Source: Bacteroidota bacterium (lineage in GTDB: Bacteria > Bacteroidota > Bacteroidia > B-17B0 > Aurantibacillaceae). Taken from it: a stretch of DNA of 64,000 nt. The position numbers and the translations under genes were made by a program. The number at the start of each line of letters is the position of its first letter. Positions within the stretch are counted from its first letter, which is position 1. Below the pieces are notes generated by a model. It was not told the DNA's origin. It ran no database searches and saw only the letters and a list, made by a program, of their open reading frames with translations. Positions 25,075 through 39,356 of the stretch are shown here, one piece after another. The DNA is taken from contig JAJNDK010000004.1 in the NCBI GenBank assembly GCA_021156365.1, positions 255,137 through 319,136 of the forward strand, read 5' to 3'.

Positions 25075-25124
25075 ACTACTAAATGTATAGAAATAAGTCC
25101 GGAAAATATCCGGGCTTATTTCTT

Positions 25125-26000
25125 TTAAAAATCTCCATAAAACACCTGGAAACATGGCAGACCAAGGTCGTTACGCCACATATCCACTACCTGGTTACGG
25201 TCGTCCAGGCAGAACTCGATGAAGTACTTGTTCGCGATCTCCTTATCGAAGATCTCGCGTTTGATGATGGAATCCTTACGCATGTCCTTAAAACGACGCA
25301 TCAGGAGCAGATCGAATTCCACCTCGTGGTTCTTCAGCCAGTTCAGTGTCTGCGGTTTATGCACATCCTGGCGTCCCGATAAAAGGATGATCGTATATCC
25401 TAACTTTTTATAGTTCTTCAATACATTCAACACCGGGTTGTTCGGCAGATCTTTCTCACAGGTAGCGGCATCGAATGGATTTCGTCCGTTCATGATACAG
25501 AGGGTTCCGTCAAGGTCGCAGAGGATCGCTTTCGGTAAAGATGCATCCTGCTCTGCATATTTCAGCTCTTTACGATAAAATTGTTTTTCCATATTCTTAA
25601 TTACTTTTTCACCTACCGGTTTCGAACGAGCAGCATCGCGCTTTATACACTCTTCCACCGTCGTGTCCATTTCTTTTACTTCCACTTCTATTTGTTCATC
25701 ATTGTTGTTTTTGCTGAACTCACGCACTAACTGGCGGATGCGTGTTTCATTCGTGGAACTCAGGTTGGTATCGTCCACGATCACGCTTTTTCCTTCTTCA
25801 AGGGCTTTCATGATCAGGAGGTCGCGTACTTTTTTTACAAACTTTTCATTTTTGTCAGATGTAAAGCCGTTGTCGAACATCATACGCAGGTCGTCGCGGT
25901 TGATGCGTTTGTACATTTCAGGATTATCCGCTACCAGTTTTTTCGCATAAGTGGATTTACCGCTTCCGGGCAAACCACGCATTAATATCACTTTTTTCAT
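25125..26000 (-). CDS. pnkp: polynucleotide 5'-kinase/3'-phosphatase (T4 Pnkp-like)
   Basis: N-terminal P-loop kinase MKKVILMRGLPGSGKST (near-identical to the T4 Pnkp N-terminus), C-terminal HAD/DxDGT phosphatase motif ILCDLDGTL. Confidence 0.8.
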   Translation of the reverse strand: MKKVILMRGLPGSGKSTYAKKLVADNPEMYKRINRDDLRMMFDNGFTSDKNEKFVKKVRDLLIMKALEEGKSVIVDDTNLSSTNETRIRQLVREFSKNNNDEQIEVEVKEMDTTVEECIKRDAARSKPVGEKVIKNMEKQFYRKELKYAEQDASLPKAILCDLDGTLCIMNGRNPFDAATCEKDLPNNPVLNVLKNYKKLGYTIILLSGRQDVHKPQTLNWLKNHEVEFDLLLMRRFKDMRKDSIIKREIFDKEIANKYFIEFCLDDRNQVVDMWRNDLGLPCFQVFYGDF

Positions 26001-26022
26001 ATTCAAATTCTTTATTTCTTTT

Positions 26023-27045
26023 TTAATTTTCTTCCGCATTGTTCTGGAACGGGCGCTCATACTCTGGTTTCAGCATTTTCCAGATCACACGTGAATGGTC
26101 TTTTTTATCTAACATCGCAAACAATACCTGTGGGTATTTGCAGGTTTGGAAGTATATGGCAGTTTCTTTACGGTCTTCCAGCTCTTTGTACTCTGCTTTT
26201 GCCACTGCTTCAATTTCTGCAAAGTTCGCATGCATACGGTCCACTGTTTCACGCACCCAGTTAAAGAATTCATCCGGCACACGTTCCAGCACTTCGTTCA
26301 ATGGCTTGTTCTCTTTCAGGTATTCCCAGATGTTGAGGGAAGAAACCTGTGTAACAACACGGTGGATACGTACATAATCATCAAATTTCACTTTGTAACG
26401 GATACCACCTTCGAATTTGATCACAAAACCTTCCTTGTTCTCTTCTTCCAGCTCTTTTAAGGCCTGCAGGCTGTTGATCCCGTCATAACGCTTCACCAAA
26501 GTGAACCCGATATCCGAAAGCGGAACATCCTTGCCTGTTGCATTGTCGGTGATCGCCAGTAATACCAGGTCTTCCTGTTCGCCGTAGTTTACCACGATAC
26601 GGTTCTCCGGATAAATGATCTCGAACAGGTAGGTTTTGGTTTTATCCAGCAATGAAAAGGTATGCGCATATTTTTCATGCAGCATTTCTGTTGCCTTTAC
26701 CGATTGTTTGCTGGTGAAGGAACCACGGGTTGCAATGGCAGGTTTATCATCGTTCCAGTACAGGATACCTAATGAACCATCCATTTTCTCATAGACCTCG
26801 AATTTTTCGTTCGGGATCTCCTGGTTCTCGTGCTCACCCAGGTTGAAGAATTTGGTAAAAGGGCGGGCTACTACTGAAAAATTTTCATCCATGATCAGGC
26901 CACGGCACTGCAAAGTAACTTCATTCCATACACGCTCGAACTGTGCCGATTGTGTATAATTGTAAATGAAGAGTTTTTCGTTCGGGTGCTTTTGTGTTAC
27001 CACGTACCCTTCGGCCATCATTTTGTTCAGTAGTTCTGTGTTCAT
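26023..27045 (-). CDS. ATP-dependent RNA ligase, T4 Rnl1-like
   Basis: nucleotidyltransferase motif I KxDG (YEKMDGSLGILY), similar length to T4 Rnl1; start taken at MNTELLNK. Confidence 0.75.
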   Translation of the reverse strand: MNTELLNKMMAEGYVVTQKHPNEKLFIYNYTQSAQFERVWNEVTLQCRGLIMDENFSVVARPFTKFFNLGEHENQEIPNEKFEVYEKMDGSLGILYWNDDKPAIATRGSFTSKQSVKATEMLHEKYAHTFSLLDKTKTYLFEIIYPENRIVVNYGEQEDLVLLAITDNATGKDVPLSDIGFTLVKRYDGINSLQALKELEEENKEGFVIKFEGGIRYKVKFDDYVRIHRVVTQVSSLNIWEYLKENKPLNEVLERVPDEFFNWVRETVDRMHANFAEIEAVAKAEYKELEDRKETAIYFQTCKYPQVLFAMLDKKDHSRVIWKMLKPEYERPFQNNAEEN

Positions 27046-27099
27046 TTTCGTAGTTTTAAATATACTTGTTATTTCCAACGATACAAAGGTGAAATGGAA

Positions 27100-27120
27100 C
27101 TGCGCAATCGAACTGCGTAG
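27100..27120. promoter_or_regulatory. palindromic operator CTGCGCAA-N5-(C)TGCGTAG upstream of the Rnl1-Pnkp-NTase operon
   Basis: ctgcgcaatcgaactgcgtag, 55-75 bp upstream of the Rnl1 start; same motif at 33156, 33257, 37392 and 37504. Confidence 0.6.
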
Positions 27121-27274
27121 ATAAAAATAATTTGTTAAAAAAATCACGAATCACTCAAAAAAGCCTGTTTCTGAGTAATTTAAACAGCAGGCCCGGATCG
27201 GAATTAAGAATTAATTTTTGTATTTTTATGTATATACCACCGTTATAGCATCAAAACACAGCAATTCAAAACCT

Positions 27275-30200
27275 ATGAACAAAAATCTATCCTCCTTGTT
27301 ATTGCTGGCTGGTGTCGCTGCAATGACCTATGCACTCTTTTCCAAAAGTGACCCAGCGTCCGAGACTGACCTGGTGAGCGAAACACCGGATACAACAATG
27401 GTATTGCCTGCCGATCCTTCTACTTTTCCGGCTTTACTGGTCCACCGGATTGAAGGAGACAGTACTTCTGTGCCACTGCACATGAGCGGCCTGAAGCTGG
27501 ATGTAAAAGTAGTAGGGAATATTGCGCTTAGCACGATGGAGATGACTTTTTACAATGATCTCGATCGCGTGCTGGAAGGGGACCTGTGTTTTCCCTTAGG
27601 TGAGGGGCAGACCGTATCCGGATTCGGGATGGAAACGGATGGAGTAATGCGGGATGGCGTAGTGGTGGAAAAGGCAAAAGCACGGCAGGTTTTTGAATCT
27701 GTTGTGAGAAGAAGGATCGACCCGGGATTACTGGAATGGACGAAAGGGAATAATTTCAAAACACGTGTGTACCCTATTCCTGCACATGGAAGCAAACGTG
27801 TTCGCATCAGCTTCGAGCAGGAGCTGATCTCTACGGTCAGTGGTTTTGTTTACCTGCAACCGATGCTGTTTAAAGACAAGATCGAGAAATTCGATCTTCG
27901 CGCAGAGGTGATTCAGCAATCGGTAAAACCAAGGTCTTCGAAAAATGCAGTGTCCATAGAATTCGACGAGTGGAACAACTCTTGGGTGGCAGAAAAGCGC
28001 CTGGAGAATTTCACAGGTAATAAAGCCCTTTCATTTGAGATACCAAAGGCAGAAGATATGCAACGTATTTTTGTAGAGAACACCGGCTATTTTTATCTCA
28101 CACTTGATCCGGTTAAATACATCCGCCCTAAAAAACTGCCTTCTTCTGTGTGCCTGCTTTGGGATGTTTCGGGATCAGGGCTGAACCGCGACATTCAAAA
28201 GGAGGAAGCCTTGCTGGACGTTTATTTCAAGAAGCTACAAAATGCAGGTATTCATCTGGTGACCTTTAGTAATACTATTCATACGGAATCGGATTTTATT
28301 CTCAGCAAAGGAAACTGGCAGGCACTGAAGGAAGAGCTGGACAGACAGGTGTTTGATGGAGGCACACAGTTAGGTGCGATCGATCTGAAAAAATACAAAG
28401 CTGAGGAGATTCTCCTGTGCTCGGACGGGCTCAGCACTTTCGGCGATGCAGACATGAAGCTCTCAAAAATCCCGGTTAATGCTATTTGTTCCTCGCAGTC
28501 GGCCGATCATTCCATGTTGAAATACATTACGCAGGCAACGGGCGGACATTATATAAATGCGCTTTCTACTACAAACGAAGAAGCGATGAAGCTCATCGGT
28601 ACAGAATCGTATCGGTTCTTAGGAGCAAGCCCGGGTGTGGGAAGGGTTTCCCAATTGTATCCTTCCATTCCTACGGATTTCAACAGAACAATTGCTGTAG
28701 CAGGAAAGATAGAAAGCTCTTCAGCGGAAGTCACATTGAATTTCGGTTTCGGGGATGAGATCGTCTATTCGAAAAAAGTGCTTGTACATGCTGCAACGCA
28801 GATCAAAGACGGTTTTGTGAAAAAGCTGTGGGCGCAAAAAAAGATCAGCGAACTCGATATGCGCTACGAAAAAAACAAGAAGGAAATAACTGCATTGGGA
28901 AAAGAATGCTCGATCGTTACACGCAACACTTCTTTGCTGGTGCTCGACAGGCTGGAAGACTATATTCAGCATCATGTAGTTCCTCCACAAAAAGAATGGC
29001 AGGAACAATATTATACAGCTATAAATGAACAGGTCGAAAATGTTGCTGCCGACAAGAACGCTCATCTCGAAGAAGTGGTGCAGGCCTTTCAGCAACGGAT
29101 CGATTGGTGGAACACCAGCTTTAAGTACAGGAATTATAAGAAGGAGCAGAAACCAAAGGTTGCACCAACGGTGCGTTTTTCTAATCCTGTTGTAACAGAT
29201 GATGCAACGGAGACTGAAACGGCAGCTTCTGACACATTCCGGGCTTTCAGAGGAAATGGGTTTGCGACTGCAGACTCCGTTTCATTTACACCAGGACGTG
29301 TCAATGAAACTTCGAATAATCTTGTTAACGCCGAAACCCAGAACTCACCCGTTACCGGCTGGTCATACAATGATCCGCAGAACGGAGGATTTGACCATGT
29401 TCCTTACGAAGAACAGGAAACAACTGCCGGAACAGCTTACACCTGGAGCTTTAATGGAACATCGGACGGGACAGTCGCGAATCAGTCGGGAGCATATGCC
29501 ACAACGTTAAATACCACCAGTTATAATGTAACAGTAACGGATGCCAATGGAGCTACAATGGCTACAAGGTCGGCCAACTTTCGCATGGAAGCCGGAGTAG
29601 TATCGAAGATCAACCTGAAGGCCTGGGATCCGAAAACACCTTATATGGAAAAGCTCAAAAAAGCAAAAGAACAAAACAGGTATGCGACTTATCTGGATTT
29701 ACGGAAAACCTATAAGGATCAGCCCGCTTTCTTTCTCGATGCCGGAAACTACTTTATCGAAAAGGGAGATAAGACAAATGGTCTTCGGGTACTTTCCAAT
29801 CTTGCCGAGTTTAATACAGAAGATCATAAGGCACTTCGTGTGTTGGCACATAAGCTGCAACAGGCGGGTTTCACCGATCTTGCTATTGCAATGTTTAAAG
29901 AAGTATTGAAGATCCGGGAAGAAGAACCACAGTCTTATCGCGACCTTGGTCTTGCACTGGCTGATAAAAAAGAGTACCAGGGCGCAGTGGATATGCTCTG
30001 CAAAGTCGCGAATAAACGATGGGACAGCCGTTTTCCCGGGATCGAAGTACTTGCAGCCAATGAGATCAATTCCCTGATCGCCAGCAGCGGAGCGAAAGTA
30101 AAATTAGATTCTCTCGATAAACGCCTGATCAAACCAATGCCGGTGGATGTGCGGATCGTGATCAACTGGGAGTCGGACAATTGTGATATGGATCTATGGG

Positions 30201-30511
30201 TGACGGATCCTGTAGGAGAGCAATGCATGTACAACCACAATGAAACACAGAACGGCGGCAGGATCTCGCAGGATTTTACAGGAGGTTACGGTCCGGAGGA
30301 ATTCATTGTAAAAAAAGCGCTGAACGGAAAATACCTCGTTCAGGTCAATTATTACGGCACGCGCGAGCAAACACTTTTAGGACCAACAACAGTTCAGGCG
30401 GAGCTATATACCAATTACGGAAAACCGAATCAGAAAAAACAGGAAGTCACACTCCGGCTGAAAGAGGATAAGGAAGTAATTGATATCGGCGCATTGGCTT
30501 TTGGGAAATAG
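27275..30511 (+). CDS. VIT-vWA-TPR-DUF2135 large protein (YfaP-like C-terminus)
   Basis: transmembrane/signal segment, VIT domain (LKLDVKVVGNIALSTMEMTF...RVYPIPAHGSKRVRISFEQ), vWA (LLWDVSGSG), TPR-like helices, C-terminal DUF2135-like beta domain (VRIVINWESDNCDMDLWVTDP...YGPEEF). Confidence 0.7.
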   Translation: MNKNLSSLLLLAGVAAMTYALFSKSDPASETDLVSETPDTTMVLPADPSTFPALLVHRIEGDSTSVPLHMSGLKLDVKVVGNIALSTMEMTFYNDLDRVLEGDLCFPLGEGQTVSGFGMETDGVMRDGVVVEKAKARQVFESVVRRRIDPGLLEWTKGNNFKTRVYPIPAHGSKRVRISFEQELISTVSGFVYLQPMLFKDKIEKFDLRAEVIQQSVKPRSSKNAVSIEFDEWNNSWVAEKRLENFTGNKALSFEIPKAEDMQRIFVENTGYFYLTLDPVKYIRPKKLPSSVCLLWDVSGSGLNRDIQKEEALLDVYFKKLQNAGIHLVTFSNTIHTESDFILSKGNWQALKEELDRQVFDGGTQLGAIDLKKYKAEEILLCSDGLSTFGDADMKLSKIPVNAICSSQSADHSMLKYITQATGGHYINALSTTNEEAMKLIGTESYRFLGASPGVGRVSQLYPSIPTDFNRTIAVAGKIESSSAEVTLNFGFGDEIVYSKKVLVHAATQIKDGFVKKLWAQKKISELDMRYEKNKKEITALGKECSIVTRNTSLLVLDRLEDYIQHHVVPPQKEWQEQYYTAINEQVENVAADKNAHLEEVVQAFQQRIDWWNTSFKYRNYKKEQKPKVAPTVRFSNPVVTDDATETETAASDTFRAFRGNGFATADSVSFTPGRVNETSNNLVNAETQNSPVTGWSYNDPQNGGFDHVPYEEQETTAGTAYTWSFNGTSDGTVANQSGAYATTLNTTSYNVTVTDANGATMATRSANFRMEAGVVSKINLKAWDPKTPYMEKLKKAKEQNRYATYLDLRKTYKDQPAFFLDAGNYFIEKGDKTNGLRVLSNLAEFNTEDHKALRVLAHKLQQAGFTDLAIAMFKEVLKIREEEPQSYRDLGLALADKKEYQGAVDMLCKVANKRWDSRFPGIEVLAANEINSLIASSGAKVKLDSLDKRLIKPMPVDVRIVINWESDNCDMDLWVTDPVGEQCMYNHNETQNGGRISQDFTGGYGPEEFIVKKALNGKYLVQVNYYGTREQTLLGPTTVQAELYTNYGKPNQKKQEVTLRLKEDKEVIDIGALAFGK

Positions 30512-30519
30512 TCCGGGGC

Positions 30520-31065
30520 TTATTTCCGGACCGTATCCCATTTCCCAAAATGCTGCAGGAAGATCTTCGCAATATTCCGTGCATCATCGATCCCGCGGTG
30601 GTGTGTGCCCTCAAGTTCGATCTTTTCCATCCACAGTGCGCCTGCCATTCCGGTATGTTTTTTCAGGCCTTTGATCCCGGTGTACTGATGTTTGAGACTG
30701 ATATGCTTTTCGAGCCAGGAGGTTTCCAGTTCGTGGAGCTCGCAATCGTTCTTCAGCTGCACGCGGTCATAATGGCCCCAGCTGCAGAGCAGGTAATCTT
30801 CTGTACCAATCCAGTTTCTGAATTTTTTCAGCACTTCCGGGAATGTTTCCGCAGCATCTACCTGCTCCTGGGTGATAGTTGTGAGTTTGATGCAGAAAGG
30901 CGAAAGCTGTGTATCCAGTTTGGGTTTCACAAATGCACAGAATTCGCTTTCAATAATTTTGTTTTCGTTGATGCAAAGCGCACCGATCTCAATGATCTCG
31001 TTTTTCTTTGATGGATCCCTCGGCTCCCAACAGGAGGCTTCGAGATCGAGTATAATGTATTTCAT
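30520..31065 (-). CDS. DEDDh 3'-5' exonuclease (ERI-1/KapD-like)
   Basis: Exo I DLEAS, Exo II, Exo III H-x4-D (HHRGIDDARN); 181 aa. Confidence 0.75.
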   Translation of the reverse strand: MKYIILDLEASCWEPRDPSKKNEIIEIGALCINENKIIESEFCAFVKPKLDTQLSPFCIKLTTITQEQVDAAETFPEVLKKFRNWIGTEDYLLCSWGHYDRVQLKNDCELHELETSWLEKHISLKHQYTGIKGLKKHTGMAGALWMEKIELEGTHHRGIDDARNIAKIFLQHFGKWDTVRK

Positions 31066-31080
31066 AATTTTCTTTTTTTG

Positions 31081-31398
31081 TTATAATTCTTTTTCTTCTT
31101 GTTTGTATTCACAGCGAATAGCTTTGCCATAAATGATCTTCGTCCAGCCATTCTCGAATCCATGATTGTTGGCGATCAGGAAGCCTTTATTCGTGTCTGT
31201 TTGAACGATCTTATGTGCATCTATGAAACGTCCTCTCACCTTGCAAAATACAATATCACCAATTTCATAGTGTTCAGCCTTTGTAAAGGTAAGCAGCGAA
31301 CCGCTTTTTAAAATGGGTAACATAGAATTGCCGAAGCATTTCATGGAACCTGTTCCTGTATTTTCTAATTCTTCTTTTAATCGTAAATATTTATTCAT
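31081..31398 (-). CDS. stand-alone S24-family (LexA/UmuD-like) peptidase domain protein
   Basis: GNSMLP Ser motif plus downstream Lys; 105 aa. Confidence 0.5.
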   Translation of the reverse strand: MNKYLRLKEELENTGTGSMKCFGNSMLPILKSGSLLTFTKAEHYEIGDIVFCKVRGRFIDAHKIVQTDTNKGFLIANNHGFENGWTKIIYGKAIRCEYKQEEKEL

Positions 31399-31453
31399 TT
31401 GTTTTTTTAATTGTAAAAAGCCCTGCTTCTATGGAAGCAGGGTCGGGTTTTAG

Positions 31454-32548
31454 TTATGGGCCGAACAGCGTTCGCAGCTGCGATGAAACGGGGCTCTCAC
31501 CGGAGATCGTAATACCATTGATCTTCGCTGTGATCTTTTCCACAAACTCCATCTCTTTGAGCTTGAACAGCATTGCATTGTCCTCCATCAGCTTCGCAGT
31601 GTTCAGAAGGCTACGTGTAGCTGCTGTTTCCTCACGACGCATGATGGTGTTGGCCTGTGCTTTTTTCTCCGCAATCAGTACCTGGTTCAGGATCTCTTTC
31701 ATATCACCTGGCAGGATGATGTCGCGGATACCACCACCGCGCAGTGCTACACCCAGTTCTTTGATACGTTCGGCAGCAGCTTCCAGGATGAAAGCGGAAA
31801 TGCTTTCTTTTTTATCCAGCAGTTCATCCAGGCTCAGCGCACCCACATACTCGCGCAGGACCAGCTGCATGATCACATAGAGTTGTTTTTCGTACTCTTT
31901 GTTATTCACCACTGCTTTCACAATGTCTTCAATGTGATACTGCACATAGAAATTGATACGCAGGCCCGCTTTGTCTTTGCTCAGGATCTCCTGGCCCGCG
32001 ATCTCCAGCTGCATCGTACGCATATCGGCACGCGTGATCACAATAGATGTGTTATTTTTCCAGAAGTAATACGAACCCGGTTCCATGATCTTCACGTATT
32101 TACCATCCATGTACATCACGGCTTTTTCACACGGCTCTACTGTATAAAAACGGATGTACTGGATCAGCTCTTTACGCATGTACAGGGATGGATCGATATC
32201 CGCACCGATCTCCGTTTTATTCAGATCCACGATTTTGAATTCCTGTATGATCAGACCTTTCCAGTATATATAAGTGCCGGGACCCAGCACTTCCATGAAC
32301 AGACCTTTTTCGTAACGCAGGGCAATCTCGTTATTTTTCACTTCAACGATATCGATAGCAGCTATGAAAGCCGGATCACGCATCAGGATATTGATGTTGC
32401 GGGGCGCAATGAATGGTTTCGCCATATCATATTCCACCAGCTCATCGAAGTAGGAAATACGATGTGCGCCTTCGGTCAGCACTGTTTTGTATTCGCCATC
32501 GGAAAATACCATGCCGATCTTACCGGCCTTTATTTTTATCTTTTTCAT
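31454..32548 (-). CDS. SPFH/band-7 (stomatin/flotillin-like) domain protein
   Basis: C-terminal SPFH core (LSLDELLDKKESIS...IKELGVALRGGGIRDIILPGDMKEILNQVLIAEKKAQA); start taken at MKKIKIKAGK. Confidence 0.65.
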   Translation of the reverse strand: MKKIKIKAGKIGMVFSDGEYKTVLTEGAHRISYFDELVEYDMAKPFIAPRNINILMRDPAFIAAIDIVEVKNNEIALRYEKGLFMEVLGPGTYIYWKGLIIQEFKIVDLNKTEIGADIDPSLYMRKELIQYIRFYTVEPCEKAVMYMDGKYVKIMEPGSYYFWKNNTSIVITRADMRTMQLEIAGQEILSKDKAGLRINFYVQYHIEDIVKAVVNNKEYEKQLYVIMQLVLREYVGALSLDELLDKKESISAFILEAAAERIKELGVALRGGGIRDIILPGDMKEILNQVLIAEKKAQANTIMRREETAATRSLLNTAKLMEDNAMLFKLKEMEFVEKITAKINGITISGESPVSSQLRTLFGP

Positions 32549-32872
32549 ATGTTTGTTTTTTCTTGTTTTTAAATTTAAAAGAAGGAATTGTTTCATTCAC
32601 CCGTGAATAGCGGAATCCTGTTTCAGTAAGCCGCTTTCGAATGGTTTTTATACAATTACAAGAAAGTCCATTGTATAAAAAGCAAAAGCTGTTGGCATAA
32701 CGGTATCCACATTCATCTGGCTTTCCACCGGTTGTTCCGTACCGCTTCCGGCGCGGAGCTGAATCAAACCATTCCTTTCTTTTTGAGCGCCATTTTTATA
32801 GAAGTCGGCATCTTCTCTTTTGAGGATCTGGAATCCTTTGCGTTTACCAGTTTCGCCACCCTGATTGCAACA

Positions 32873-32996
32873 TCAGGGGCAGGATTCGAACCTGCATGTT
32901 TGGTGTCACACTCTAACCACTGAGTTACCTGCATTGCTGCAGAACCGGATTCGAACCGGTGACCTTGACGTCATTCGTTCGTTAATCAACCGCAGC
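32873..32996 (-). pseudogene. two tandem degenerate tRNA-like fragments (D-arm plus T-arm, no anticodon arm)
   Basis: GTAACTCAGTGGTTAGAGT D-arm and GCAGGTTCGAATCCTGC / ACCGGTTCGAATCCGGT T-arms on the minus strand with incomplete acceptor stems. Confidence 0.3.
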
Positions 32997-33155
32997 ATAT
33001 AAATAACCAGTGGCCATTTACACTATGGGGCCTTTTGAAACCCTCATCACGGGCGTATTGCTAACGAAACGCTCTTTATCCTGCTTTCGCAGAAAATGAT
33101 TTTATATATTCAAAGAACTATTTTACTCTATCAACACTGCAAAGGTGAAACGCGA

Positions 33156-33176
33156 CTACGTAACCGAATTGCGCAG
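33156..33176. promoter_or_regulatory. palindromic operator copy (CTACGTAA-N5-TTGCGCAG)
   Basis: ctacgtaaccgaattgcgcag, preceded by caaaggtgaaa as at 27086. Confidence 0.5.
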
Positions 33177-33256
33177 GAACTATTTTTACTTCCTTTTTTT
33201 CTAAGCAACTGGAACAGAGCCGGAATACTTTTTTATCCCTTCCTGTTTTTGCTCAT

Positions 33257-33277
33257 CCGCGCAAATAGATTGCGTAG
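33257..33277. promoter_or_regulatory. palindromic operator copy (CCGCGCAA-N5-TTGCGTAG)
   Basis: ccgcgcaaatagattgcgtag. Confidence 0.5.
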
Positions 33278-33284
33278 ATCACTG

Positions 33285-33355
33285 TTCTCTTAACCGGAAT
33301 CGAACCAATATCTTATCCTTAGAAGGGATGTGTTTTTCCTTTAAACTATAAGAGA
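33285..33355 (-). tRNA. tRNA-Arg(UCU), AT-rich non-canonical
   Basis: hand fold: acceptor TCTCTTA/TAAGAGA, D-stem GTTT/AAAC, anticodon loop CTTCTAA, T-arm ATTGG-TTCGATT-CCGGT. Confidence 0.55.
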
Positions 33356-33358
33356 ATG

Positions 33359-33441
33359 TTCCTCCGAACCCCGATAGTTATCGGGGCGAACTTTTGTTTC
33401 GCGGTTAAAAGCCGCGAGCTCTGCCACTGAGCTACGAAGGA
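33359..33441 (-). ncRNA. tRNA-Lys(UUU)-like gene with T-arm replaced by palindromic hairpin CCCCGATAACTATCGGGG
   Basis: acceptor TCCTTCG/CGGAGGA, D-arm GCTC-AGTGGCA-GAGC, anticodon arm CGCGG-CTTTTAA-CCGCG; the T-arm position holds GTTCG[CCCCGATAACTATCGGGG]TTCGG. Confidence 0.45.
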
Positions 33442-33455
33442 ATTTATATTTTTAC

Positions 33456-33529
33456 TGGTAGCTCCTGATTGAATCGAACAATCACTTTATGGATGTAAGC
33501 CATACATTCTGCCTTTAAATTAAGGAGCT
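33456..33529 (-). tRNA. tRNA-Val(UAC), CCA encoded
   Basis: acceptor AGCTCCT/AGGAGCT, anticodon arm TATGG-CTTACAT-CCATA, T-arm GATTG-TTCGATT-CAATC, 3' ACCA encoded. Confidence 0.6.
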
Positions 33530-33535
33530 GTTTTG

Positions 33536-33607
33536 TTGCCTTAGAAAGAATCGAACCTTCACCCTCCGGTTTATGAGACCGGTGCTCCACCCTTGAGCTA
33601 TAAGGCA
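33536..33607 (-). tRNA. tRNA-Met/Ile2(CAU)
   Basis: acceptor TGCCTTA/TAAGGCA, D-arm GCTC-AAGGGTG-GAGC, anticodon arm CCGGT-CTCATAA-ACCGG, T-arm GAAGG-TTCGATT-CTTTC. Confidence 0.65.
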
Positions 33608-33613
33608 TTTTTG

Positions 33614-33685
33614 TTGTCTTAACAGGATTTGAACCTGTAGCCTCCGACGTATCAGGTCGTTGCTCCACCTGTTGAGCTATAAGAC
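33614..33685 (-). tRNA. tRNA-Ile(GAU)
   Basis: acceptor TGTCTTA/TAAGACA, D-arm GCTC..GAGC, anticodon loop CTGATAC, T-arm ACAGG-TTCAAAT-CCTGT. Confidence 0.6.
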
Positions 33686-33691
33686 AATGTG

Positions 33692-33762
33692 AGCAGAATA
33701 TCGGATTCGAACCGCGTCCCCTGGGTGGAAACCAGGTGCTTTACCACTAAGCTATATTCTGC
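33692..33762 (-). tRNA. tRNA-Gly(UCC)
   Basis: acceptor GCAGAAT/ATTCTGC (extendable to 9 bp), anticodon arm CCTGG-TTTCCAC-CCAGG, T-loop TTCGAAT with a weak 3-bp T-stem. Confidence 0.5.
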
Positions 33763-33906
33763 ATAGTATTCCCACGGTCCCGATAGCTATCGCGAGAACC
33801 CGTGTCTGGTCATTGAAAGTGACCGATCCTAACCATTAGAAGATGGGAACATAGTTCCTCTTCTTCATTCCTTTTGTTCTTCATTTTATTAATTATTAAT
33901 CGTTTG

Positions 33907-33975
33907 CACATTCACAGGGAATCGAACCTTGTCCTGCAGTTTTGGAGGCTGCGTGGCTACCATAGCCTTGAATGT
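33907..33975 (-). ncRNA. tRNA-like gene with 9-nt anticodon loop
   Basis: acceptor ACATTCA/TGAATGT, D-like hairpin GGCTA-TGG-TAGCC, stem GCAG-CCTCCAAAA-CTGC, T-arm ACAAGG-TTCGATT-CCCTGT. Confidence 0.35.
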
Positions 33976-33981
33976 AGTGGC

Positions 33982-34018
33982 GGTTCATAAGGGTCCCGAT
34001 AGCTGTCGGGACGGACCC
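33982..34018. repeat. extended palindromic element GGGTCCCGATAGCTGTCGGGACGGACCC
   Basis: member of the CCCGATAGCTATCGGG palindrome family (copies near 33369, 33779, 34265, 34974, 35372, 41201). Confidence 0.6.
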
Positions 34019-34232
34019 TTGTCTTCCGAGCGACAGTCGGAGATAATGGCCTTTATACCAATGAACCTGGTGCTTCGATAGATGCCGATGTGATGTACAA
34101 GGCTTTTGCAAACTTCGCCTTCATTGTCATCGGGCCGCGGACTTTAACCGCTCCTTGTACACTGCGCTTTGACAAGAGCACAGCTACATTTTTCGCATCT
34201 ATCCGGCGCGCCTTTGCATGGCTTACCGTTTG

Positions 34233-34318
34233 CGGACAAAGCAGGATTCGAACCTACTGCCTGATGCCCCGATAGCTATCGGGGCAGTCAACTGCTCATC
34301 CATATGAGCTTTTTGTCC
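34233..34318 (-). ncRNA. tRNA-like gene with anticodon arm replaced by a 22-bp perfect palindrome TGCCCCGATAGCTATCGGGGCA
   Basis: acceptor GGACAAA/TTTGTCC, D-arm GCTC-ATATGGAT-GAGC, T-arm GTAGG-TTCGAAT-CCTGC; the region between D- and T-arms is the palindromic hairpin with short flanks and no anticodon stem. Confidence 0.45.
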
Positions 34319-34328
34319 AATTTTTTTG

Positions 34329-34401
34329 AGCCAGTAGCAAGCCTCGAACTTGCGACCTTCTGCTTACAAGGCAGTTGCTCTTCCCGCTGAGCTATACCGG
34401 C
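34329..34401 (-). tRNA. tRNA-Thr(UGU), GC-rich canonical-looking
   Basis: acceptor GCCGGTA/TACTGGC, D-arm GCTC-AGCGGGAA-GAGC, anticodon arm ACTGC-CTTGTAA-GCAGA, T-arm GCAAG-TTCGAGG-CTTGC. Confidence 0.65.
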
Positions 34402-34462
34402 ATTTGAAGGTGAAAACGCAGTAAGCCAGGTTTTTCCTGATAGCTACACTCAATCACCTTTG

Positions 34463-34605
34463 TTGACCCGGATGGATTCGAACCATCGCAACCCGTGTTA
34501 ATCACTGACGAAAAATCTTAATCGATTTTTATCAGAATTAACCTTGATAAAACTTGTTTCGTCAAGGTTACAAGCACGGTACTCTACTTGCTGAGCTACA
34601 GATCA
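34463..34605 (-). ncRNA. tRNA-Thr(UGU)-like gene with ~70-nt structured insertion in the anticodon loop
   Basis: acceptor TGATCTG/CGGGTCA (2 GU pairs), D-arm GCTC-AGCAAGTA-GAGT, 5' anticodon stem CCGTG plus loop CTTGTAA, then insertion 34497-34566 with internal inverted repeats (CCTTGA..TCAAGG; AAAAATC..GATTTTT), then 3' stem CACGG, T-arm GATGG-TTCGAAT-CCATC. Confidence 0.4.
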
Positions 34606-34626
34606 ATAATTCAAGGAATACAATTT

Positions 34627-34772
34627 TTTAAAAGGGCAATGAACGAACATAGTTTTGGGTTTTCGTTAACAGCGAAGTAACTATGTTCTACGGCACCTTA
34701 TTTTAAAAGGCAATAAACGGGTATAGTTTTATTTTGCGTGACAGGCGAAGTAACTATACTCTACGGCACTTT
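34627..34772. repeat. two tandem ~73-nt paralogous hairpin units (candidate small structured RNAs)
   Basis: unit 1 has inverted repeat GAACATAGTT...AACTATGTTC; unit 2 has GTATAGTT...AACTATAC; the units share aaaggcaat..catagtttt..cgaagtaactat..ctacggcac. Confidence 0.45.
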
Positions 34773-34774
34773 TG

Positions 34775-34847
34775 TCGATCTACCTGGATTCGAACCAGGG
34801 ACTTCAGTCTTAAAAGGACTGAGCTCTGCCAACTGAGCTATAGACCG
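34775..34847 (-). tRNA. tRNA-Lys(UUU)
   Basis: acceptor CGGTCTA/TAGATCG, D-arm GCTC-AGTTGGC-AGAGC, anticodon arm CAGTC-CTTTTAA-GACTG, T-arm CCTGG-TTCGAAT-CCAGG. Confidence 0.65.
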
Positions 34848-34849
34848 AA

Positions 34850-35400
34850 ATTTGAATGGGTAAAAATCGAAAGAGAACGTTTTGGCGCTCTATCCGCTGA
34901 GCTATAAGGCAATGAAATGAATATTGGTTGCCTCAATGGGATTCGAACCCATGACCTCCCGATTAAGAGTCGATCCCGATAGCTATCGGGACTTTTCTAC
35001 GACACCATTCAATGGTTTTGATGAGGAAAAAAACGTTCAGTGCTTTTGTTAACTGAGCTACTCTTCATTGCTGAAAGATTGGACTTGAACCAATGGCCTT
35101 CCCGACATTTATCGTCGGGGCGCTCTACCGAAGTATCACTTTACTACGTCACTCATCAATGTTTTTAAACAGGTAAAAAGCTGTAAAAGTTTTTTGTCTT
35201 GTGCTCTAACCAACTGAGCTATCTGCCTTTCGACAAAACCGGACTCGAACCGGTGCCCCCAAGGTTAACGATGTATCTCTTACATACGACACTGTTTAAT
35301 TTTGAAGAAAGAGCGATGGTTGCGGGAGCGTGTCTTAGAGGATTCGAACCTCTGACCTTTCGGCCTCACCATCCCGATAGCTATCGGGAGAAGTATCTCT
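34850..35400 (-). pseudogene. run of degenerate or rearranged tRNA-like fragments with palindrome insertions
   Basis: 5' half TGCCTTATAGCTCAGCGGATAGAGC (34850-34913); 3' half ..ATGGGTTCGAATCCCATTGAGGCAACCA with palindrome (34925-35012); Leu(UAA)-like anticodon hairpin CCCGAC-GATAAAT-GTCGGG plus T-arm ATTGG-TTCAAGT-CCAAT (~35060-35110); 5' half GGCAGATAGCTCAGTTGGTTAGAGCAC (~35200); T-arm ACCGG-TTCGAGT-CCGGT (~35235); element 35320-35400 with palindrome, GAAA-tetraloop hairpin and T-arm AGAGG-TTCGAAT-CCTCT. None folds into a complete cloverleaf by hand. Confidence 0.3.
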
Positions 35401-35447
35401 CCGCGAACGGCATCTTTCAATAGGTTTGTCAGGAGCAATTGCGATCC

Positions 35448-35520
35448 GCAGTGATGGAGACCTGCCGGCGGGGATTTGCACCCCGTTCCGTTTCTGCACC
35501 GGAACCCTCTCTCCTATGGA
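35448..35520 (-). ncRNA. D-armless tRNA-like hairpin RNA with TGCAAAT T-loop (candidate Y-RNA-like)
   Basis: GGAGAGA..TCTCC closing stem, stem GTTCCG/CGGAAC, T-like arm GGGG-TGCAAAT-CCCC; located ~290 bp downstream of the rsr stop. Confidence 0.35.
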
Positions 35521-35589
35521 TGGTATGCTCACCGCGATCTACGGCAACCTGACAATGTGTTTAATTATATGCTGTCAAAAGCGAAATGC

Positions 35590-35660
35590 GATGAGGGCAG
35601 GGGATACGCAATGAGGATTTGCACCTCTTCCTGATTGTAATGTCAGGACCCTTCCCCTTC
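35590..35660 (-). ncRNA. D-armless tRNA-like RNA with TGCAAAT T-loop (candidate Y-RNA-like)
   Basis: closing stem GGGGAAG/..TATCCCC, anticodon-like arm TCCTGA-CATTACAA-TCAGGA, T-like arm GAGG-TGCAAAT-CCTC; paralog of 35448-35520; ~150 bp downstream of rsr. Confidence 0.35.
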
Positions 35661-35744
35661 AATGGCGCGAAGTAGCCCTTTTCTGCGGCATTCTGGCAGC
35701 AATGTTTTTTTGTCTTTGAATAATATGTCAATGAACGAATTTCT

Positions 35745-35797
35745 TTTAAAACCTCCCTGTCTCCTTCGACAAGCTCAGGATGACGGGGGAGGAGTTT
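35745..35797 (-). terminator. rho-independent terminator of rsr
   Basis: minus strand CCTCCCCCGTCATCCTGAGCTTGTCGAAGGAGACAGGGAGG followed by TTTT; loop sequence resembles the terminator at 63065-63110. Confidence 0.6.
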
Positions 35798-35803
35798 TTT
35801 ATT

Positions 35804-37321
35804 TTATAATTCAATTTGTTTGATTTTTTCTACTGCACCCACACCATTTTCGATAGCGTGCAATACATCAAACACTTTGTCCGACCAACCTGCGATCAGG
35901 TGTACATCGTTTTTCTGAACGTTCAGCGGCGTGTTTCCATGGCCCGCAAGATCGAACAGGTACAATTTTGCTTTTGGCGCGATCGCTTTGTAGGCATTCC
36001 AGGATTTCTCCAGGGAAGAACCCGCATGACGGCTATCCCACAGCTGGCAGTCGGTGAACAGCATCACTTTATCCATCACCACGTTTCGTGCGATCAGGTC
36101 ATCGATCACTTTGTAACCATTGGTCGAGTAACCCACTTCACCTTCACGTTTGTAGTATTGGTCCACATTGGCCAGTACTCCGCGGTTTGGCAGGTTGATC
36201 ACTTTCCAGGTATCACCGAACATACCTGATACCACACGCTTACATTTCGACTGCATCAGCATACCCAGCATCAGGCCGATGTCGTAAAACATCACTTTGC
36301 TTTTAGCCGATACGGCTTGCTGCATCGAACCGGATACGTCACATGCTACCAGCACGGCAGTGTTCTCGTCGAAACCTTTCAGGTTCTTAACGCTTGCCAC
36401 CACTGCATCTTCCAGCGCATTCAATACCATGGTCACGAACTCCGAGTTCATCACTTTGATCTCACGGTGCGCTGCGAGGAAACGGAATGGCAACTGTTTC
36501 GAGTTTGCCACCGCAGTCTCATTCGACAGGTAAGCGCATACTTTTTTCACATGCGAAGCAGATACTTTTGCTTCCAGTATGTTACGCAGGTTACGCATCA
36601 AAGCCATATAACCAACTTTACCGCTGTCGATCAGTTCTTCCCATTTAGCACGGAAAGCTGCAGCCTTTTCTTTATCGTTGGCATATTTTGTCTGACCCAA
36701 TGCCGACAGCTCAGTTTCCCAGGTGTATGGAACAGCCAGTTCGTTCGCAGCTATTTTATTGAACACCACTTGCTGGTTCTCGTCTTTCGCTTTTGGATGC
36801 ACTATGAACAGGGCGTCACGCAATTTCACTTCCGCATCCCGATTGTATTTTGCGAACTGGTATTCATCGAAACGGTTGAAAGATACTGCCAGCCCTTTCT
36901 GGATCTGCTTCGACAGCTTATTCAGCTTTTTAGTACCGTTACGTTTGTTGGCCAGCTGGTAATATGCCAGGAGCTCGGTGATCTCATCGGCACGTTTTAC
37001 CACGCCCGATACGGTTTTACCTACCACCGCATCACCGGAGTTCAGTTTGGCCAGTTCTACCGCCAGTACCATTGGGATCGAACGCATATACATTTCGTTA
37101 CGTGCATACACTGCCAGTTTCGCTACGTATTGTGCATCGTTTTTCAACATCAGCTCACGGATACGTGTCAAACGGGTATCTGCTTTCTCATAGAAGCTGT
37201 CGTTTAGGCCCGCAGTTACTACCGCTGAGTATAGCTCCAGCTCAGGAGTCAGTTGGAATGCTTTTGCACCTTCATAGTTTGTAACTACGTTTTCTGTTTT
37301 TTTGAAGATGTTGAATTTCAT
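35804..37321 (-). CDS. rsr: Ro60-like (TROVE domain plus vWA/MIDAS) ribonucleoprotein Rsr
   Basis: 505 aa; N-terminal TROVE-like helical repeats (NYEGAKAFQLTPELELYSAVVTAGL...MRSIPMVLAVELA); C-terminal vWA MIDAS (VLVACDVSGSMQ). Confidence 0.8.
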   Translation of the reverse strand: MKFNIFKKTENVVTNYEGAKAFQLTPELELYSAVVTAGLNDSFYEKADTRLTRIRELMLKNDAQYVAKLAVYARNEMYMRSIPMVLAVELAKLNSGDAVVGKTVSGVVKRADEITELLAYYQLANKRNGTKKLNKLSKQIQKGLAVSFNRFDEYQFAKYNRDAEVKLRDALFIVHPKAKDENQQVVFNKIAANELAVPYTWETELSALGQTKYANDKEKAAAFRAKWEELIDSGKVGYMALMRNLRNILEAKVSASHVKKVCAYLSNETAVANSKQLPFRFLAAHREIKVMNSEFVTMVLNALEDAVVASVKNLKGFDENTAVLVACDVSGSMQQAVSAKSKVMFYDIGLMLGMLMQSKCKRVVSGMFGDTWKVINLPNRGVLANVDQYYKREGEVGYSTNGYKVIDDLIARNVVMDKVMLFTDCQLWDSRHAGSSLEKSWNAYKAIAPKAKLYLFDLAGHGNTPLNVQKNDVHLIAGWSDKVFDVLHAIENGVGAVEKIKQIEL

Positions 37322-37391
37322 TTTGTTTAGTTTTTAAATTTCTTGTTTATCAATTGTTGTTCTTAATCAGCACTGCAAAGATTCTATACTC

Positions 37392-37412
37392 CTGCGCAAC
37401 AGAATTGCGCAG
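37392..37412. promoter_or_regulatory. perfect palindromic operator CTGCGCAA-cagaa-TTGCGCAG upstream of rsr
   Basis: 71-91 bp upstream of the rsr start; 8-bp arms are exact reverse complements. Confidence 0.65.
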
Positions 37413-37503
37413 TAAAAAAATAATTCGCGGAACGATCAAATAAATCTGTAATGTGTTGATTTTCATTTGAGATAATTTCAAAAGAAAATTCATCTCTTTC
37501 CTA

Positions 37504-37524
37504 TTGCGCAAATAGATTGCGCAG
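37504..37524. promoter_or_regulatory. palindromic operator TTGCGCAA-ataga-TTGCGCAG upstream of the WYL regulator gene
   Basis: 51-71 bp upstream of the WYL gene start; likely autoregulatory site. Confidence 0.65.
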
Positions 37525-37574
37525 ATAAATGAAATGTTTATCTTTGATACAACCTGTTTTTAAATAAAAACGTT

Positions 37575-38588
37575 ATGCCCATTAATAAATTAGCCCTTGT
37601 TCGCTACAAAACCATCGACAATTGTTTACAGAACCGTTTTCGCAAATGGACGCTGGACGACCTGATGGAGGCGGTTTCCGAAGCTTTGTATGAATACGAA
37701 GGTATCACCAAAGGCATCAGCCGGAGAACCATACAGCTTGATCTGCAAAACATGCGCAGTGAGAAACTTGGTTACAATGCACCGATCGTAGTAACGGATA
37801 AAAAGTTCTACAGTTACGAAGACAAGCAGTACAGCATCACCAGTATTCCTTTAACAGAACAGGATATGGGCACGTTGAACGAAGTGTTGGGTGTTCTGAA
37901 ACAATTCAAAGGCTTTGGTTATTTCCAGGAACTTACCGGGATGGTAACCAAGCTCGAGGACAAGCTTTATAAGCAACAGCATAAAGGCAAATCATATATC
38001 GATTTTGAAAAAAACGAATTGCTCAAAGGTTTAGAGTTTATTGATCCTTTGCACAAAGCGATCATCAATCGTAAAACGATCGAGATCACTTATCAATCCT
38101 TTAAAGCGAATCAATCACAGCAGATCGTTTTTTATCCTTATCTACTGAAAGAATACCGCAATCGCTGGTTCCTCTTCGGTATGAACAGAAAAGGCAGCTC
38201 AGCGATGATCCTTGCACTGGACCGCATTGAGAAGTTCAAAGAGCTCTCCGAAAAATATGTGAAAGCACCTTTCGATGCGCACATGTTTTTCGATGATGTG
38301 ATCGGTGTAAGTAAAGCGCCCGGACAAAAACCATCAACCATTGTGATGAAGATCGACAAAGAAAATGCACCTTATGTGATCACCAAGCCGATCCATCCTT
38401 CGCAAAAGATCCTGAAGGAAGAACCCGACGGGATCTTATTCAGCATTGATGTTGTCTGGAACTTTGAGCTGGAACGTGAATTGCTTGGCTTCGGTGAGAA
38501 GCTGCACATACTTTCTCCGCGTAGGCTTGCCGGAAAAATACAATCGCGTTTGAAACACACATTACAAAAATATCAAAGAACGGAATAA
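37575..38588 (+). CDS. HTH-WYL-WCX domain transcriptional regulator
   Basis: N-terminal wHTH (LALVRYKTIDNCLQ), WYL signature (IVFYPYLLKEYRNRWFLFGMN), C-terminal WCX-like region. Confidence 0.8.
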   Translation: MPINKLALVRYKTIDNCLQNRFRKWTLDDLMEAVSEALYEYEGITKGISRRTIQLDLQNMRSEKLGYNAPIVVTDKKFYSYEDKQYSITSIPLTEQDMGTLNEVLGVLKQFKGFGYFQELTGMVTKLEDKLYKQQHKGKSYIDFEKNELLKGLEFIDPLHKAIINRKTIEITYQSFKANQSQQIVFYPYLLKEYRNRWFLFGMNRKGSSAMILALDRIEKFKELSEKYVKAPFDAHMFFDDVIGVSKAPGQKPSTIVMKIDKENAPYVITKPIHPSQKILKEEPDGILFSIDVVWNFELERELLGFGEKLHILSPRRLAGKIQSRLKHTLQKYQRTE

Positions 38589-38594
38589 TACGTG

Positions 38595-38670
38595 TCGGGA
38601 AAGCAGGATTTGAACCTGCGAACTCTCGCTTCCAGGGCGAGCGGGGACGGCCTGACTCCCCCATTTCCCG
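38595..38670 (-). tRNA. tRNA-Pro(UGG)-like, C at position 33
   Basis: acceptor CGGGAAA/TTTCCCG (C1:G72 as in bacterial tRNA-Pro), D-arm GGGG-AGTCAGGCCGT-CCCC (11-nt loop), anticodon arm CTCGC-CCTGGAA-GCGAG, T-arm GCAGG-TTCAAAT-CCTGC. Confidence 0.5.
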
Positions 38671-38681
38671 TTTTATCTTTG

Positions 38682-38755
38682 TCGATCAATGAGGACTCGA
38701 ACCTCAAACCTTCTGATTCGTAATCAGGTGCTCTATCCAATTGAGCTATTGATCG
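38682..38755 (-). tRNA. tRNA-Arg(ACG)
   Basis: acceptor CGATCAA/TTGATCG all Watson-Crick, D-arm GCTC..GAGC, anticodon loop TTACGAA, T-arm TGAGG-TTCGAGT-CCTCA. Confidence 0.7.
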
Positions 38756-38756
38756 G

Positions 38757-38832
38757 TGGTGGACAAGGGTGGGATCGAACCACCTTCTCCGGATTTTCAG
38801 TCCGGCGCATAGACCAACTCTGCTACTTGTCC
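38757..38832 (-). tRNA. tRNA-Phe(GAA), CCA encoded
   Basis: acceptor GGACAAG/CTTGTCC, anticodon arm CCGGA-CTGAAAA-TCCGG, T-arm GGTGG-TTCGATC-CCACC, ACCA 3' end; only 1 nt from the preceding gene. Confidence 0.6.
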
Positions 38833-38956
38833 ATTTCATCAACACTTTATGCAAGCCACCTTCCGGATTTTAAAGTGGCTGCTTTTGCCACTTTGAGGTC
38901 GCTATTCGCTCGGTTCAATCCGCTGCATTGACCATCTTTGCTACATTTCCATTTTG

Positions 38957-39029: not shown

Positions 39030-39067
39030 ATGTTTCAATTGTAGCAAAACGTTCGCTGCAATTGTAG

Positions 39068-39143: not shown

Positions 39144-39172
39144 TAGTTTTTTTATCGGTCTACAAACCGAAG

Positions 39173-39267: not shown

Positions 39268-39274
39268 ATTTTTG

Positions 39275-39348: not shown

Positions 39349-39356
39349 ATATTTTG

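Follow-up and report, generated by a model that had tools for sequence, protein, structure and literature searches.

Palindromic boxes, the probable operators of a WYL-domain regulator, at RNA-repair promoters in Bacteroidota

Which protein reads a palindrome that recurs in front of RNA-repair genes, and what does it do there? The question is raised by a 64,000-nucleotide stretch of a Bacteroidota bacterium (Aurantibacillaceae; assembly GCA_021156365.1, contig JAJNDK010000004.1, positions 255,137 to 319,136), here called the window. In it, copies of a 21-bp palindrome, the box (consensus CTRCGCAA-N5-TTGCGYAG), stand before the genes for an Rnl1-type RNA ligase and a Pnkp kinase-phosphatase, before rsr, which encodes a Ro60/TROVE protein, and before a gene for a regulator with a WYL domain. 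A preliminary description of the sequence had proposed that the WYL protein controls these genes, its own included, as a single RNA-repair regulon. Comparison across related loci indicates that the boxes are very probably the operators of the WYL protein and define a conserved regulon. The idea of one RNA-repair regulon is thereby supported, and the regulon proves wider than the island, taking in RtcB and, in Chitinophagales, recA.

Five boxes in the window

A pattern search of the 64 kb for CTGCGCAA-N5-TTGCGCAG with up to three mismatches returned exactly five sites, the same five copies that had been described before, against a chance expectation of 0.34; none of 100 shuffles reached five. 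Scored with a weight matrix derived from related loci, these sites (boxes 1 to 5; Table 1) range from 24.6 to 29.4 bits, and the next best 21-mer in the window reaches 4.5 bits. The arms of the copy before rsr are exact reverse complements, as had been noticed. In keeping with the upstream distances given earlier, the box stands 55 nt from the ATG of rnl1 and 71 nt from that of rsr, and the ATG of the WYL gene lies 51 nt past the end of its box. A listed open reading frame that starts with GTG (26023..27147) overlaps box 1; the ATG at 27045, which gives the 340-residue ligase, is the likely start of rnl1.

Conservation around WYL orthologues

We examined 80 genomic loci (1.26 Mb) around WYL orthologues of 54-81% identity, which the record labels of metagenome-assembled genomes place in Chitinophagales, Flavobacteriales, Saprospiraceae and Cytophagales. 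More widely, the regulator has over 7,500 homologues, and every one that carries a taxonomic label belongs to Bacteroidota. Across the 1.26 Mb, 164 sites score at least 15 bits, compared with 0-2 in shuffled sequence, and 152 of them are either in the intergenic region of WYL or ahead of Rsr, RtcB, c4 or c5. These comprise 64 sites no more than 110 nt from the WYL start codon, 58 that lie 111-300 nt upstream of it in the same intergenic region, and 30 elsewhere, upstream of RtcB, Rsr or one of two uncharacterised families, c4 (743 residues) and c5 (170 residues). Five of the remaining 12 show the target promoter layout described below.

A box precedes the WYL ATG at 51-73 nt (mostly 57-72) in 64 of the 80 loci. 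The gene that diverges from WYL varies from locus to locus and may be Rsr, RtcB, Rnl1-Pnkp, S24/exonuclease, tRNA-like RNA with SPFH, or others; in front of it stands a second box, upstream of the first by 100-102 or 109-114 bp. Behind boxes of this target type, Rsr occurs most often (31 loci). Over the 80 loci the box has one constant neighbour, the WYL gene, and this is our main argument for its product as the cognate factor, a proposal further supported by a box layout like those of the WYL regulators DriD and DdaA.

Promoter layout

In Bacteroidetes the -7 element takes the form TAnnTTTG, of which TTTG is the invariant part, and the -33 motif is generally weak in the phylum (PMC7366714). 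Read on the strand of the gene it precedes, a target promoter consists of an A/T-rich tract (83% A+T), the box, 12 nt and the TTTG of a -7 element. At the 100 non-proximal sites the gap measures 12 nt in 64 and 13 nt in 14 (78/100), and it is kept across at least eight gene families. The -7 element is itself fair, with A at position 2 in 71% and then TTTG. In the window, the extension 'caaaggtgaaa', seen previously at 27086 and 33142, is real and finds its place here: on the minus strand it reads ...tttcaccTTTG and supplies the TTTG of the -7 element exactly 12 nt past the box, a spacing shared by the rsr copy. With the 12-nt gap, the target box spans about -43 to -23 and the centre of its proximal half falls near -26; the -33 position of targets lies in the box centre, which reads A-T-T-n rather than TTTG.

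The promoter of the regulator is laid out differently. In box 5 the TTG of the right half stands 19 nt before a consensus TAnnTTTG (TATCTTTG), and in 27 of the 64 loci with a box before WYL, TAnnTTT[GA] follows 14-15 nt past the box. The box lies 6 bp further upstream than at targets, at about -49 to -29, so that its right-half TTG takes the -33 position of the WYL promoter; because of this overlap, the autoregulation proposed earlier is plausible. Spacers differ as well, AATTnnn at targets versus AAATAGA at the regulator's own promoter. Box positions 3 and 19 vary independently of each other (p = 0.39), which argues for two protein half-sites and not for a hairpin.

As a separate observation, the rsr and SPFH-RNA promoters (37366-37380 and 33130-33144) share an identical 'TTTGCAGTG(C/T)TGAT' over the presumed transcription start, more than a -7 element requires.

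Box pairs

Boxes 2 and 3 had been assigned to the inside of a tRNA-like array. Both exist, but their place is the array's edge: on one side is its last tRNA, a tRNA-Arg on the minus strand (33284-33355), and on the other are the tRNA-like RNAs ahead of the SPFH gene. With its target layout, box 2 is the promoter box for these RNAs and the SPFH-S24-exonuclease operon, and it is oriented towards the two RNAs and then the three genes. A tRNA-like/YrlA-like RNA between box and SPFH is also found in three other loci (L014, L016, L042). Box 3, which is separated from box 2 by 101 bp and from the tRNA-Arg 3' end by 7 nt, is a genuine box that lacks a promoter of its own, as no TAnnTTTG follows it. 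Orphan boxes that abut a tRNA 3' end some 100 bp from an Rsr target box recur in loci L035, L044, L046 and L047.

Across loci, the spacing within pairs is 100-102 bp in 26 cases and 109-114 bp in 25, with few other values, and both classes are interspersed among lineages. Such spacing suggests that helical phase is constrained and that paired boxes are perhaps bound cooperatively. The pair at 33156 and 33257 might also have arisen by recent duplication of the rsr-WYL intergenic region; this was rejected because the two pairs of the window align only at the boxes and at about 15 nt round the presumed transcription start, the DNA between the boxes being unrelated.

Motif-first scans and recA

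In viral contigs, a degenerate box gave 109 matches, all of them single copies. Of these, about 90 were inspected and proved mostly GC-rich, without an A/T-rich tract or TTTG, many being the same stretch in one family of related contigs. No RNA-repair gene was found in the 109 stretches, and with promoter context and repair genes both absent the matches were set aside as chance or unrelated.

A metagenome scan with the target-promoter pattern gave 66 occurrences in 62 loci. Directly behind them stand Rsr (13), RtcB (10), SPFH (7) and WYL paralogues (4, plus three WYL proteins of 370 residues), and further Rnl1-Pnkp, c4, c5, an NT5C nucleotidase, a weak HEPN-like match and one recA. The distant WYL paralogues behind a target-type box (370 residues, or 53% identical; L196, L233, L243, L194, L204, L211 and L236) may mean that related WYL regulators share one box or cross-talk through it.

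The recA match led to a set of nine distinct upstream regions from Chitinophagales-type contigs (L252-L270), whose RecA proteins share 84-96% identity with that of the lead. The box is present in every one of the nine; it stands 74-182 nt ahead of the ATG and is separated by 12 nt from TTTG, ATTG or CTTG. Several of these promoters have a weak -7 core (ATTG or CTTG), and in the recA copies of the box the proximal half-site is degenerate. The box at recA promoters means that the regulon is not purely one of RNA repair.

Five of the nine promoters also carry CTAA-N5-TTAG further downstream, at -60 to -82 from the ATG, a box known from the non-canonical Bacteroidetes LexA (PMC8565304); the sequences suggest dual control of recA by the WYL box and a LexA-type box. 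This LexA, an S24 peptidase with a CI-type helix-turn-helix (HTH), resembles the present system in its phylum and in a damage regulon that includes recA, but belongs to another protein family and binds CTAA-N5-TTAG or GGA-N5-TCC, in an account that does not mention WYL proteins (PMC8565304).

The regulator and its known relatives

Pfam places a WYL domain (PF13280; E = 1.4e-12) at residues 155-221 and a WCX domain (PF25583; 1.3e-11) at residues 255-329, where the AlphaFold2 model has a predicted local distance difference test score (pLDDT) of 75-93. Both domains are modelled with confidence. The N-terminus has no HTH match in the Pfam scan; there three helices are modelled in residues 5-64, at a pLDDT of only 50-60, and residues 61-125 fall below 50. 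R195 and R197, beside W198, are invariant in the family alignment, whereas the RWHVR motif of the repressor family is absent from the WYL domain, which reads Y-R-N-R-W-F-L-F-G. NCBIfam and PADLOC name the protein by generic WYL models only.

Sequence searches of the PDB gave weak matches (E 0.03-0.7), and for that reason structures were compared. Foldseek against PDB structures ranked DriD first (1.6e-11), followed by PafBC (1.5e-10), BrxR (1.5e-6) and CapW (7e-6), with BrxR and CapW matches ranging to 1e-5. The C-terminal half superposes on the C-domain of DriD at 2.6-2.9 A, and full-length alignments to DriD span about 356 columns.

DriD of Caulobacter crescentus is a homodimeric activator of an SOS-independent DNA-damage response, built of a winged HTH (wHTH), a three-helix bundle, WYL and WCX. 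Besides being the best structural match, it shares the apparent domain order and has a similar size (327 residues, 337 here). Its boxes, ATACGAC-N7-GTCGTAT, occur at one fixed distance from the -10 element of promoters without a good -35; they are 21-bp pseudo-palindromes of 7-N7-7 form with a T-A/G-C-G core, matched here by CTRCGCA-N7-TGCGYAG, also at a fixed distance from a -10-like element and overlapping the -35/-33 region, and in both systems the regulator gene diverges from a target operon (PMC13004042). The two differ in that sequence identity is only 15-18% and the cargo here is mainly RNA repair.

DdaA of Moraxellaceae, which belongs to the WYL activators and governs DNA-damage and anti-phage genes, reads a 5-N5-5 box, CGWCA-N5-TGWCG, to which CGCAA-N5-TTGCG corresponds here, and has recA as a target, co-controlled in some lineages with a LexA-type repressor, an arrangement that the five recA promoters above, with their two boxes, would resemble; it belongs to another phylum, and no RNA-repair genes are reported in its regulon (PMC12392091). 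PafBC of Actinobacteria, the second-best structural match, activates by sigma adaptation, a -26 motif replacing the -35 element (PMC11804915), and our proximal half-site near -26 is comparable. PafBC, however, is heterodimeric or a fusion and recognises an asymmetric site through one HTH, in contrast to the symmetric site and single gene here.

CapW and BrxR share the apparent wHTH-WYL-WCX architecture and have palindromic operators in a bidirectional promoter that includes their own gene; these operators are de-repressed by single-stranded DNA, and the RWHVR motif was defined there (PMC11662680). The present regulator differs from them in lacking that motif, in its weaker structural match, in being named by generic PADLOC WYL models only, and in its neighbours, which are RNA-repair genes with no anti-phage defence operon linked.

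A proposed mechanism and its rivals

The WYL protein very probably binds the boxes, and probably does so as a dimer. Less surely than binding, it most likely activates the targets and represses its own promoter. In the mechanism that we propose, the dimer would sit on the 21-bp box with presumably one half-site per subunit. Nucleic-acid damage would provide a single-stranded ligand (single-stranded DNA or damaged RNA) that binds the WYL domain, and the ligand-bound dimer would occupy the boxes and recruit RNA polymerase at the targets, by analogy with DriD, DdaA and PafBC. Boxes 1, 2 and 4 would then drive, respectively, rnl1-pnkp-rlaP; the tRNA-like RNAs with SPFH-S24-exonuclease; and rsr, probably together with the Y-like/tRNA array behind it, which we infer to be co-transcribed from the rsr promoter. 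At its own promoter the dimer would compete with sigma for the -33 region and so limit its own synthesis. Box 3 would be a promoter-less partner kept at a conserved 101 bp from box 2, and paired boxes (about 101 or 113 bp, one helical turn-class apart between genomes) may bind cooperatively. Taken as a whole, ligand-driven activation of the targets included, this mechanism is on balance slightly favoured.

Activation is preferred because the -7 register is invariant over many gene families, an argument also made for DriD; because the proximal half-site lies near -26, as in PafBC (PMC11804915); because the -7 cores of recA are weak; and because the structural ranking and the likeness of the box point to DriD and DdaA. 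Several observations weigh against this mechanism. A box at -43 to -23 also fits the position of a repressor, and with an A/T-rich tract and a fair -7 element the targets might fire unaided. Operators in phased pairs are met more typically with repressors. The DNA-binding part of the regulator is poorly modelled, and the recA link comes from other genomes than the present one, the 64-kb window holding no homologue of RtcB, c4, c5 or recA. Lastly, DriD has one box and no autoregulation (PMC13004042), whereas here there are two phased boxes, one of them on the regulator's own promoter.

The same boxes and regulator could accordingly be read as a repressor system of the CapW/BrxR type, in which the ligand-free dimer would block RNA polymerase at the four promoters until a ligand releases it, with looping possible. 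Both box classes overlap the core promoter (-43 to -23 and -49 to -29), the tract is UP-like and the -7 element usable, boxes come in pairs at about 101 or 113 bp, and the bidirectional intergenic region has a box on the regulator's own promoter, as in CapW (PMC11662680); WYL factors by conflict or repair operons have, moreover, been predicted to be negative regulators (PMC9503650). Yet an operator of a repressor needs no -7 register, and the 12-nt gap is constant across gene families and orders; the recA copies, with their degenerate proximal half-site and ATTG/CTTG core, would make a feeble promoter to repress; RNRWFLFG stands where RWHVR would be expected; and the BrxR/CapW structural matches are some five orders of magnitude weaker than those of DriD and PafBC. 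We regard repression as a real possibility that falls short of probable.

Single-stranded DNA is the favoured ligand because DriD, PafBC and CapW bind it (PMC11662680, PMC11804915) and because recA is in the regulon. RNA is kept as a possible ligand in view of the RNA-repair cargo and of predictions that WYL factors may read RNA with cyclic ends (PMC9503650). We consider it unlikely that the WYL domain senses damaged RNA, such as tRNA halves or 2',3'-cyclic-phosphate ends, instead of single-stranded DNA, which would make the protein a Bacteroidota counterpart of RtcR. RtcR, the CARF-sigma54 activator of rsr-yrlBA-rtcBA in Salmonella, has a similar cargo of Ro60, Y-like RNAs and RtcB and senses nucleic-acid fragments (PMC7790460). 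The likeness is one of analogy only: RtcR is an unrelated CARF and AAA+ protein with another DNA site and sigma-54 -24/-12 promoters, whereas the regulator here has WYL and WCX domains only and its promoters carry the Bacteroidetes -7 TTTG. To our knowledge, RtcR-type control is lacking in this phylum. Were RNA sensing true, this would be the first RNA-damage-sensing WYL transcription factor; damage would induce Ro60/Y-like RNAs, RtcB, Rnl1-Pnkp, SPFH with tRNA-like RNA, and recA, and the spare-tRNA arrays, rich in anticodon-nuclease targets, would be induced as well and replace cleaved tRNAs.

It is very unlikely that the boxes are bound by another, unlinked transcription factor that has the WYL gene as just one target among others. 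The lack of a Pfam HTH match in the regulator's N-terminal domain would fit this, but no other gene is a constant neighbour of the box over the 80 loci, the layout and length of the box equal those of DriD and DdaA (PMC13004042, PMC12392091), and no other DNA-binding protein recurs, the S24-like protein having only 105 residues and an S24 peptidase domain. A hairpin role for the palindrome in DNA or RNA, be it as terminator, as site of RNA processing or as a mobile repeat like the repetitive extragenic palindromes, might be suggested by its 8-bp inverted repeat with a 5-nt loop and by the position of box 3 directly past a tRNA 3' end, but is so improbable that we reject it: arm positions 3 and 19 do not covary and the arms are conserved in sequence, the palindrome is not followed by a T-run, most copies precede a -7 element and so are untranscribed from that promoter, the sequence between and around copies is not homologous, and viral contigs show only single copies, those inspected without promoter context and none of the stretches with an RNA-repair gene.

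Novelty and meaning

Palindromic boxes and damage regulons are already known for WYL regulators, and the gene association was probably noted by Burroughs and Aravind in 2016. It has also been predicted that WYL factors are associated with RNA-repair genes (PMC9503650). In the literature searched on WYL control of RtcB, Ro60 or recA in Bacteroidota we found no account of the box or its promoter grammar, nor of a Bacteroidota WYL regulon that joins Ro60, RtcB, Rnl1-Pnkp, SPFH with tRNA-like RNA, and recA.

The box and its layout offer a testable cis-element and promoter grammar for the switching on of Ro60/Y-like RNAs, RtcB, Rnl1-Pnkp-RlaP and SPFH with tRNA-like RNA, and permit prediction of the regulon in any Bacteroidota genome. 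The inducing signal of bacterial Ro60 and RNA ligases thereby becomes a question for a binding assay with one protein. The regulon further suggests that Bacteroidota possess, beside the non-canonical LexA, a second damage response based on WYL, with recA under both. In mycobacteria, recA is under dual control by LexA and PafBC, and this and the pairing of LexA with DdaA in Moraxellaceae are parallels.

Genes and RNAs of the island

The gene identities assigned earlier (Rnl1-type ligase, Pnkp, RlaP, Ro60/TROVE and the WYL-WCX protein) agree with Pfam, and the features are collected in Table 1. The Rnl1-Pnkp pair also stands behind a box in locus L056 and in metagenome locus L195, and the trio of SPFH, S24-like and exonuclease genes recurs next to WYL orthologues. 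For the tandem RNAs upstream of SPFH, Rfam gives 31.7 bits with its tRNA model and 35.9 bits with YrlA, the YrlA match being below the gathering threshold.

Table 1. Boxes, promoter elements, genes and RNAs of the island, in window coordinates
Feature	Position	Strand	Assignment	Basis or score
rnl1-pnkp-rlaP	24013..27045	-	presumed operon	Pfam
rlaP	24013-25155	-	RlaP nucleotidyltransferase	Pfam
pnkp	25128-26060	-	Pnkp kinase-phosphatase	Pfam
rnl1	26026-27045	-	Rnl1-type RNA ligase, 340 residues	Pfam
TTTG (CAAA on +)	27084..27087	-	-7 element of rnl1	sequence, 12 nt past box 1
Box 1	27100..27120	-	class B (target-type) operator, rnl1-pnkp-rlaP promoter	2 mismatches, 29.4 bits
SPFH-S24-exonuclease genes	30523..32596	-		Pfam
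Exonuclease gene	30523-31065	-	RNase T-type exonuclease	Pfam
S24-like gene	31084-31398	-	S24-like protein, 105 residues	only Pfam match is S24 peptidase domain
SPFH gene	31457-32596	-	SPFH/Band-7	Pfam
Two tandem RNAs	32871..33032	-	tRNA-like/YrlA-like, upstream of SPFH	Rfam
TTTG	33140..33143	-	-7 element downstream of box 2	sequence
Box 2	33156..33176	-	target-type operator, promoter of tRNA-like RNAs and SPFH operon	2 mismatches, 24.6 bits
Box 3	33257..33277		orphan partner box, AAATAGA spacer type, without -7 element	2 mismatches, 26.1 bits
Array	33284..35400	-	8 tRNAs and tRNA-like/YrlA-like units, downstream of rsr	ARAGORN, Rfam
rsr	35807..37321	-	Ro60/TROVE	Pfam TROVE 9.4e-29
TTTG (CAAA on +)	37376..37379	-	-7 element of rsr	sequence, 12 nt past box 4
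Box 4	37392..37412	-	target-type operator, rsr promoter	perfect match (0 mismatches), 29.4 bits
Box 5	37504..37524	+	class A operator, regulator's own promoter	1 mismatch, 28.6 bits
TATCTTTG	37539..37546	+	consensus Bacteroidetes -7 element of WYL promoter	sequence
Regulator gene	37575..38588	+	probable wHTH-linker-WYL-WCX regulator, 337 residues	Pfam WYL 1.4e-12, WCX 1.3e-11

Besides the two tRNA arrays of the window (33284-35400 and 38594-39807), arrays beside the WYL/Rsr locus are seen in L035, L041, L044, L046 and L047, with up to 15 tRNAs (L041). The anticodons of these arrays include the classic anticodon-nuclease targets Lys-UUU, Gln-UUG, Glu-UUC, Asn/Asp/His/Tyr-GUN and Arg-ACG, as well as an unusual tRNA-Ile(UAU), and the array tRNAs may be inducible spare tRNAs. 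Between the rsr stop codon and the array lie two related GC-rich segments ('GGATTTGCACC...', 35430-35700), which might be Y-RNA-like partners of Ro60; Rfam gives no match there at E <= 1, and the closest YrlA match, at 35180-35283, is below gathering.

A perfect palindrome of 14-16 bp, (C)CCGATAGCTATCGG(G), occurs in seven copies in the window (33371, 33780, 33996, 34269, 34976, 35374 and 41203) against 0.08 expected. Six lie between called tRNAs of the array region, at least two of these inside Rfam tRNA-like units, and the copy at 41203 falls in the 3' part of the Thg1-like open reading frame described below. The palindrome may be a stable hairpin inserted in an anticodon arm or substituting for one.

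Divergent from rnl1 and 155 nt from box 1 is a gene for a large VIT-vWA-DUF2135 protein (27218-30511), towards which no promoter layout from box 1 fits on that strand; VIT-type proteins are also divergent from boxes in locus L011.

On the other side, the regulator gene is adjoined by a second array of nine tRNAs (38594-39807) and by genes for a Thg1-like tRNA 5'-end repair enzyme and an RNA ligase with a PHA02142-type OB fold (39962-41913). No box accompanies either, and in the region that they span (39.8-42.1 kb), as elsewhere in the window outside the five boxes, scores are at most 4.5 bits. Beyond the island, on the minus strand (42788-49256), follow a reverse transcriptase (503 residues), a 557-residue protein without a Pfam match and a 1014-residue HEAT-repeat protein, which may form a retron-like or defence-type module.

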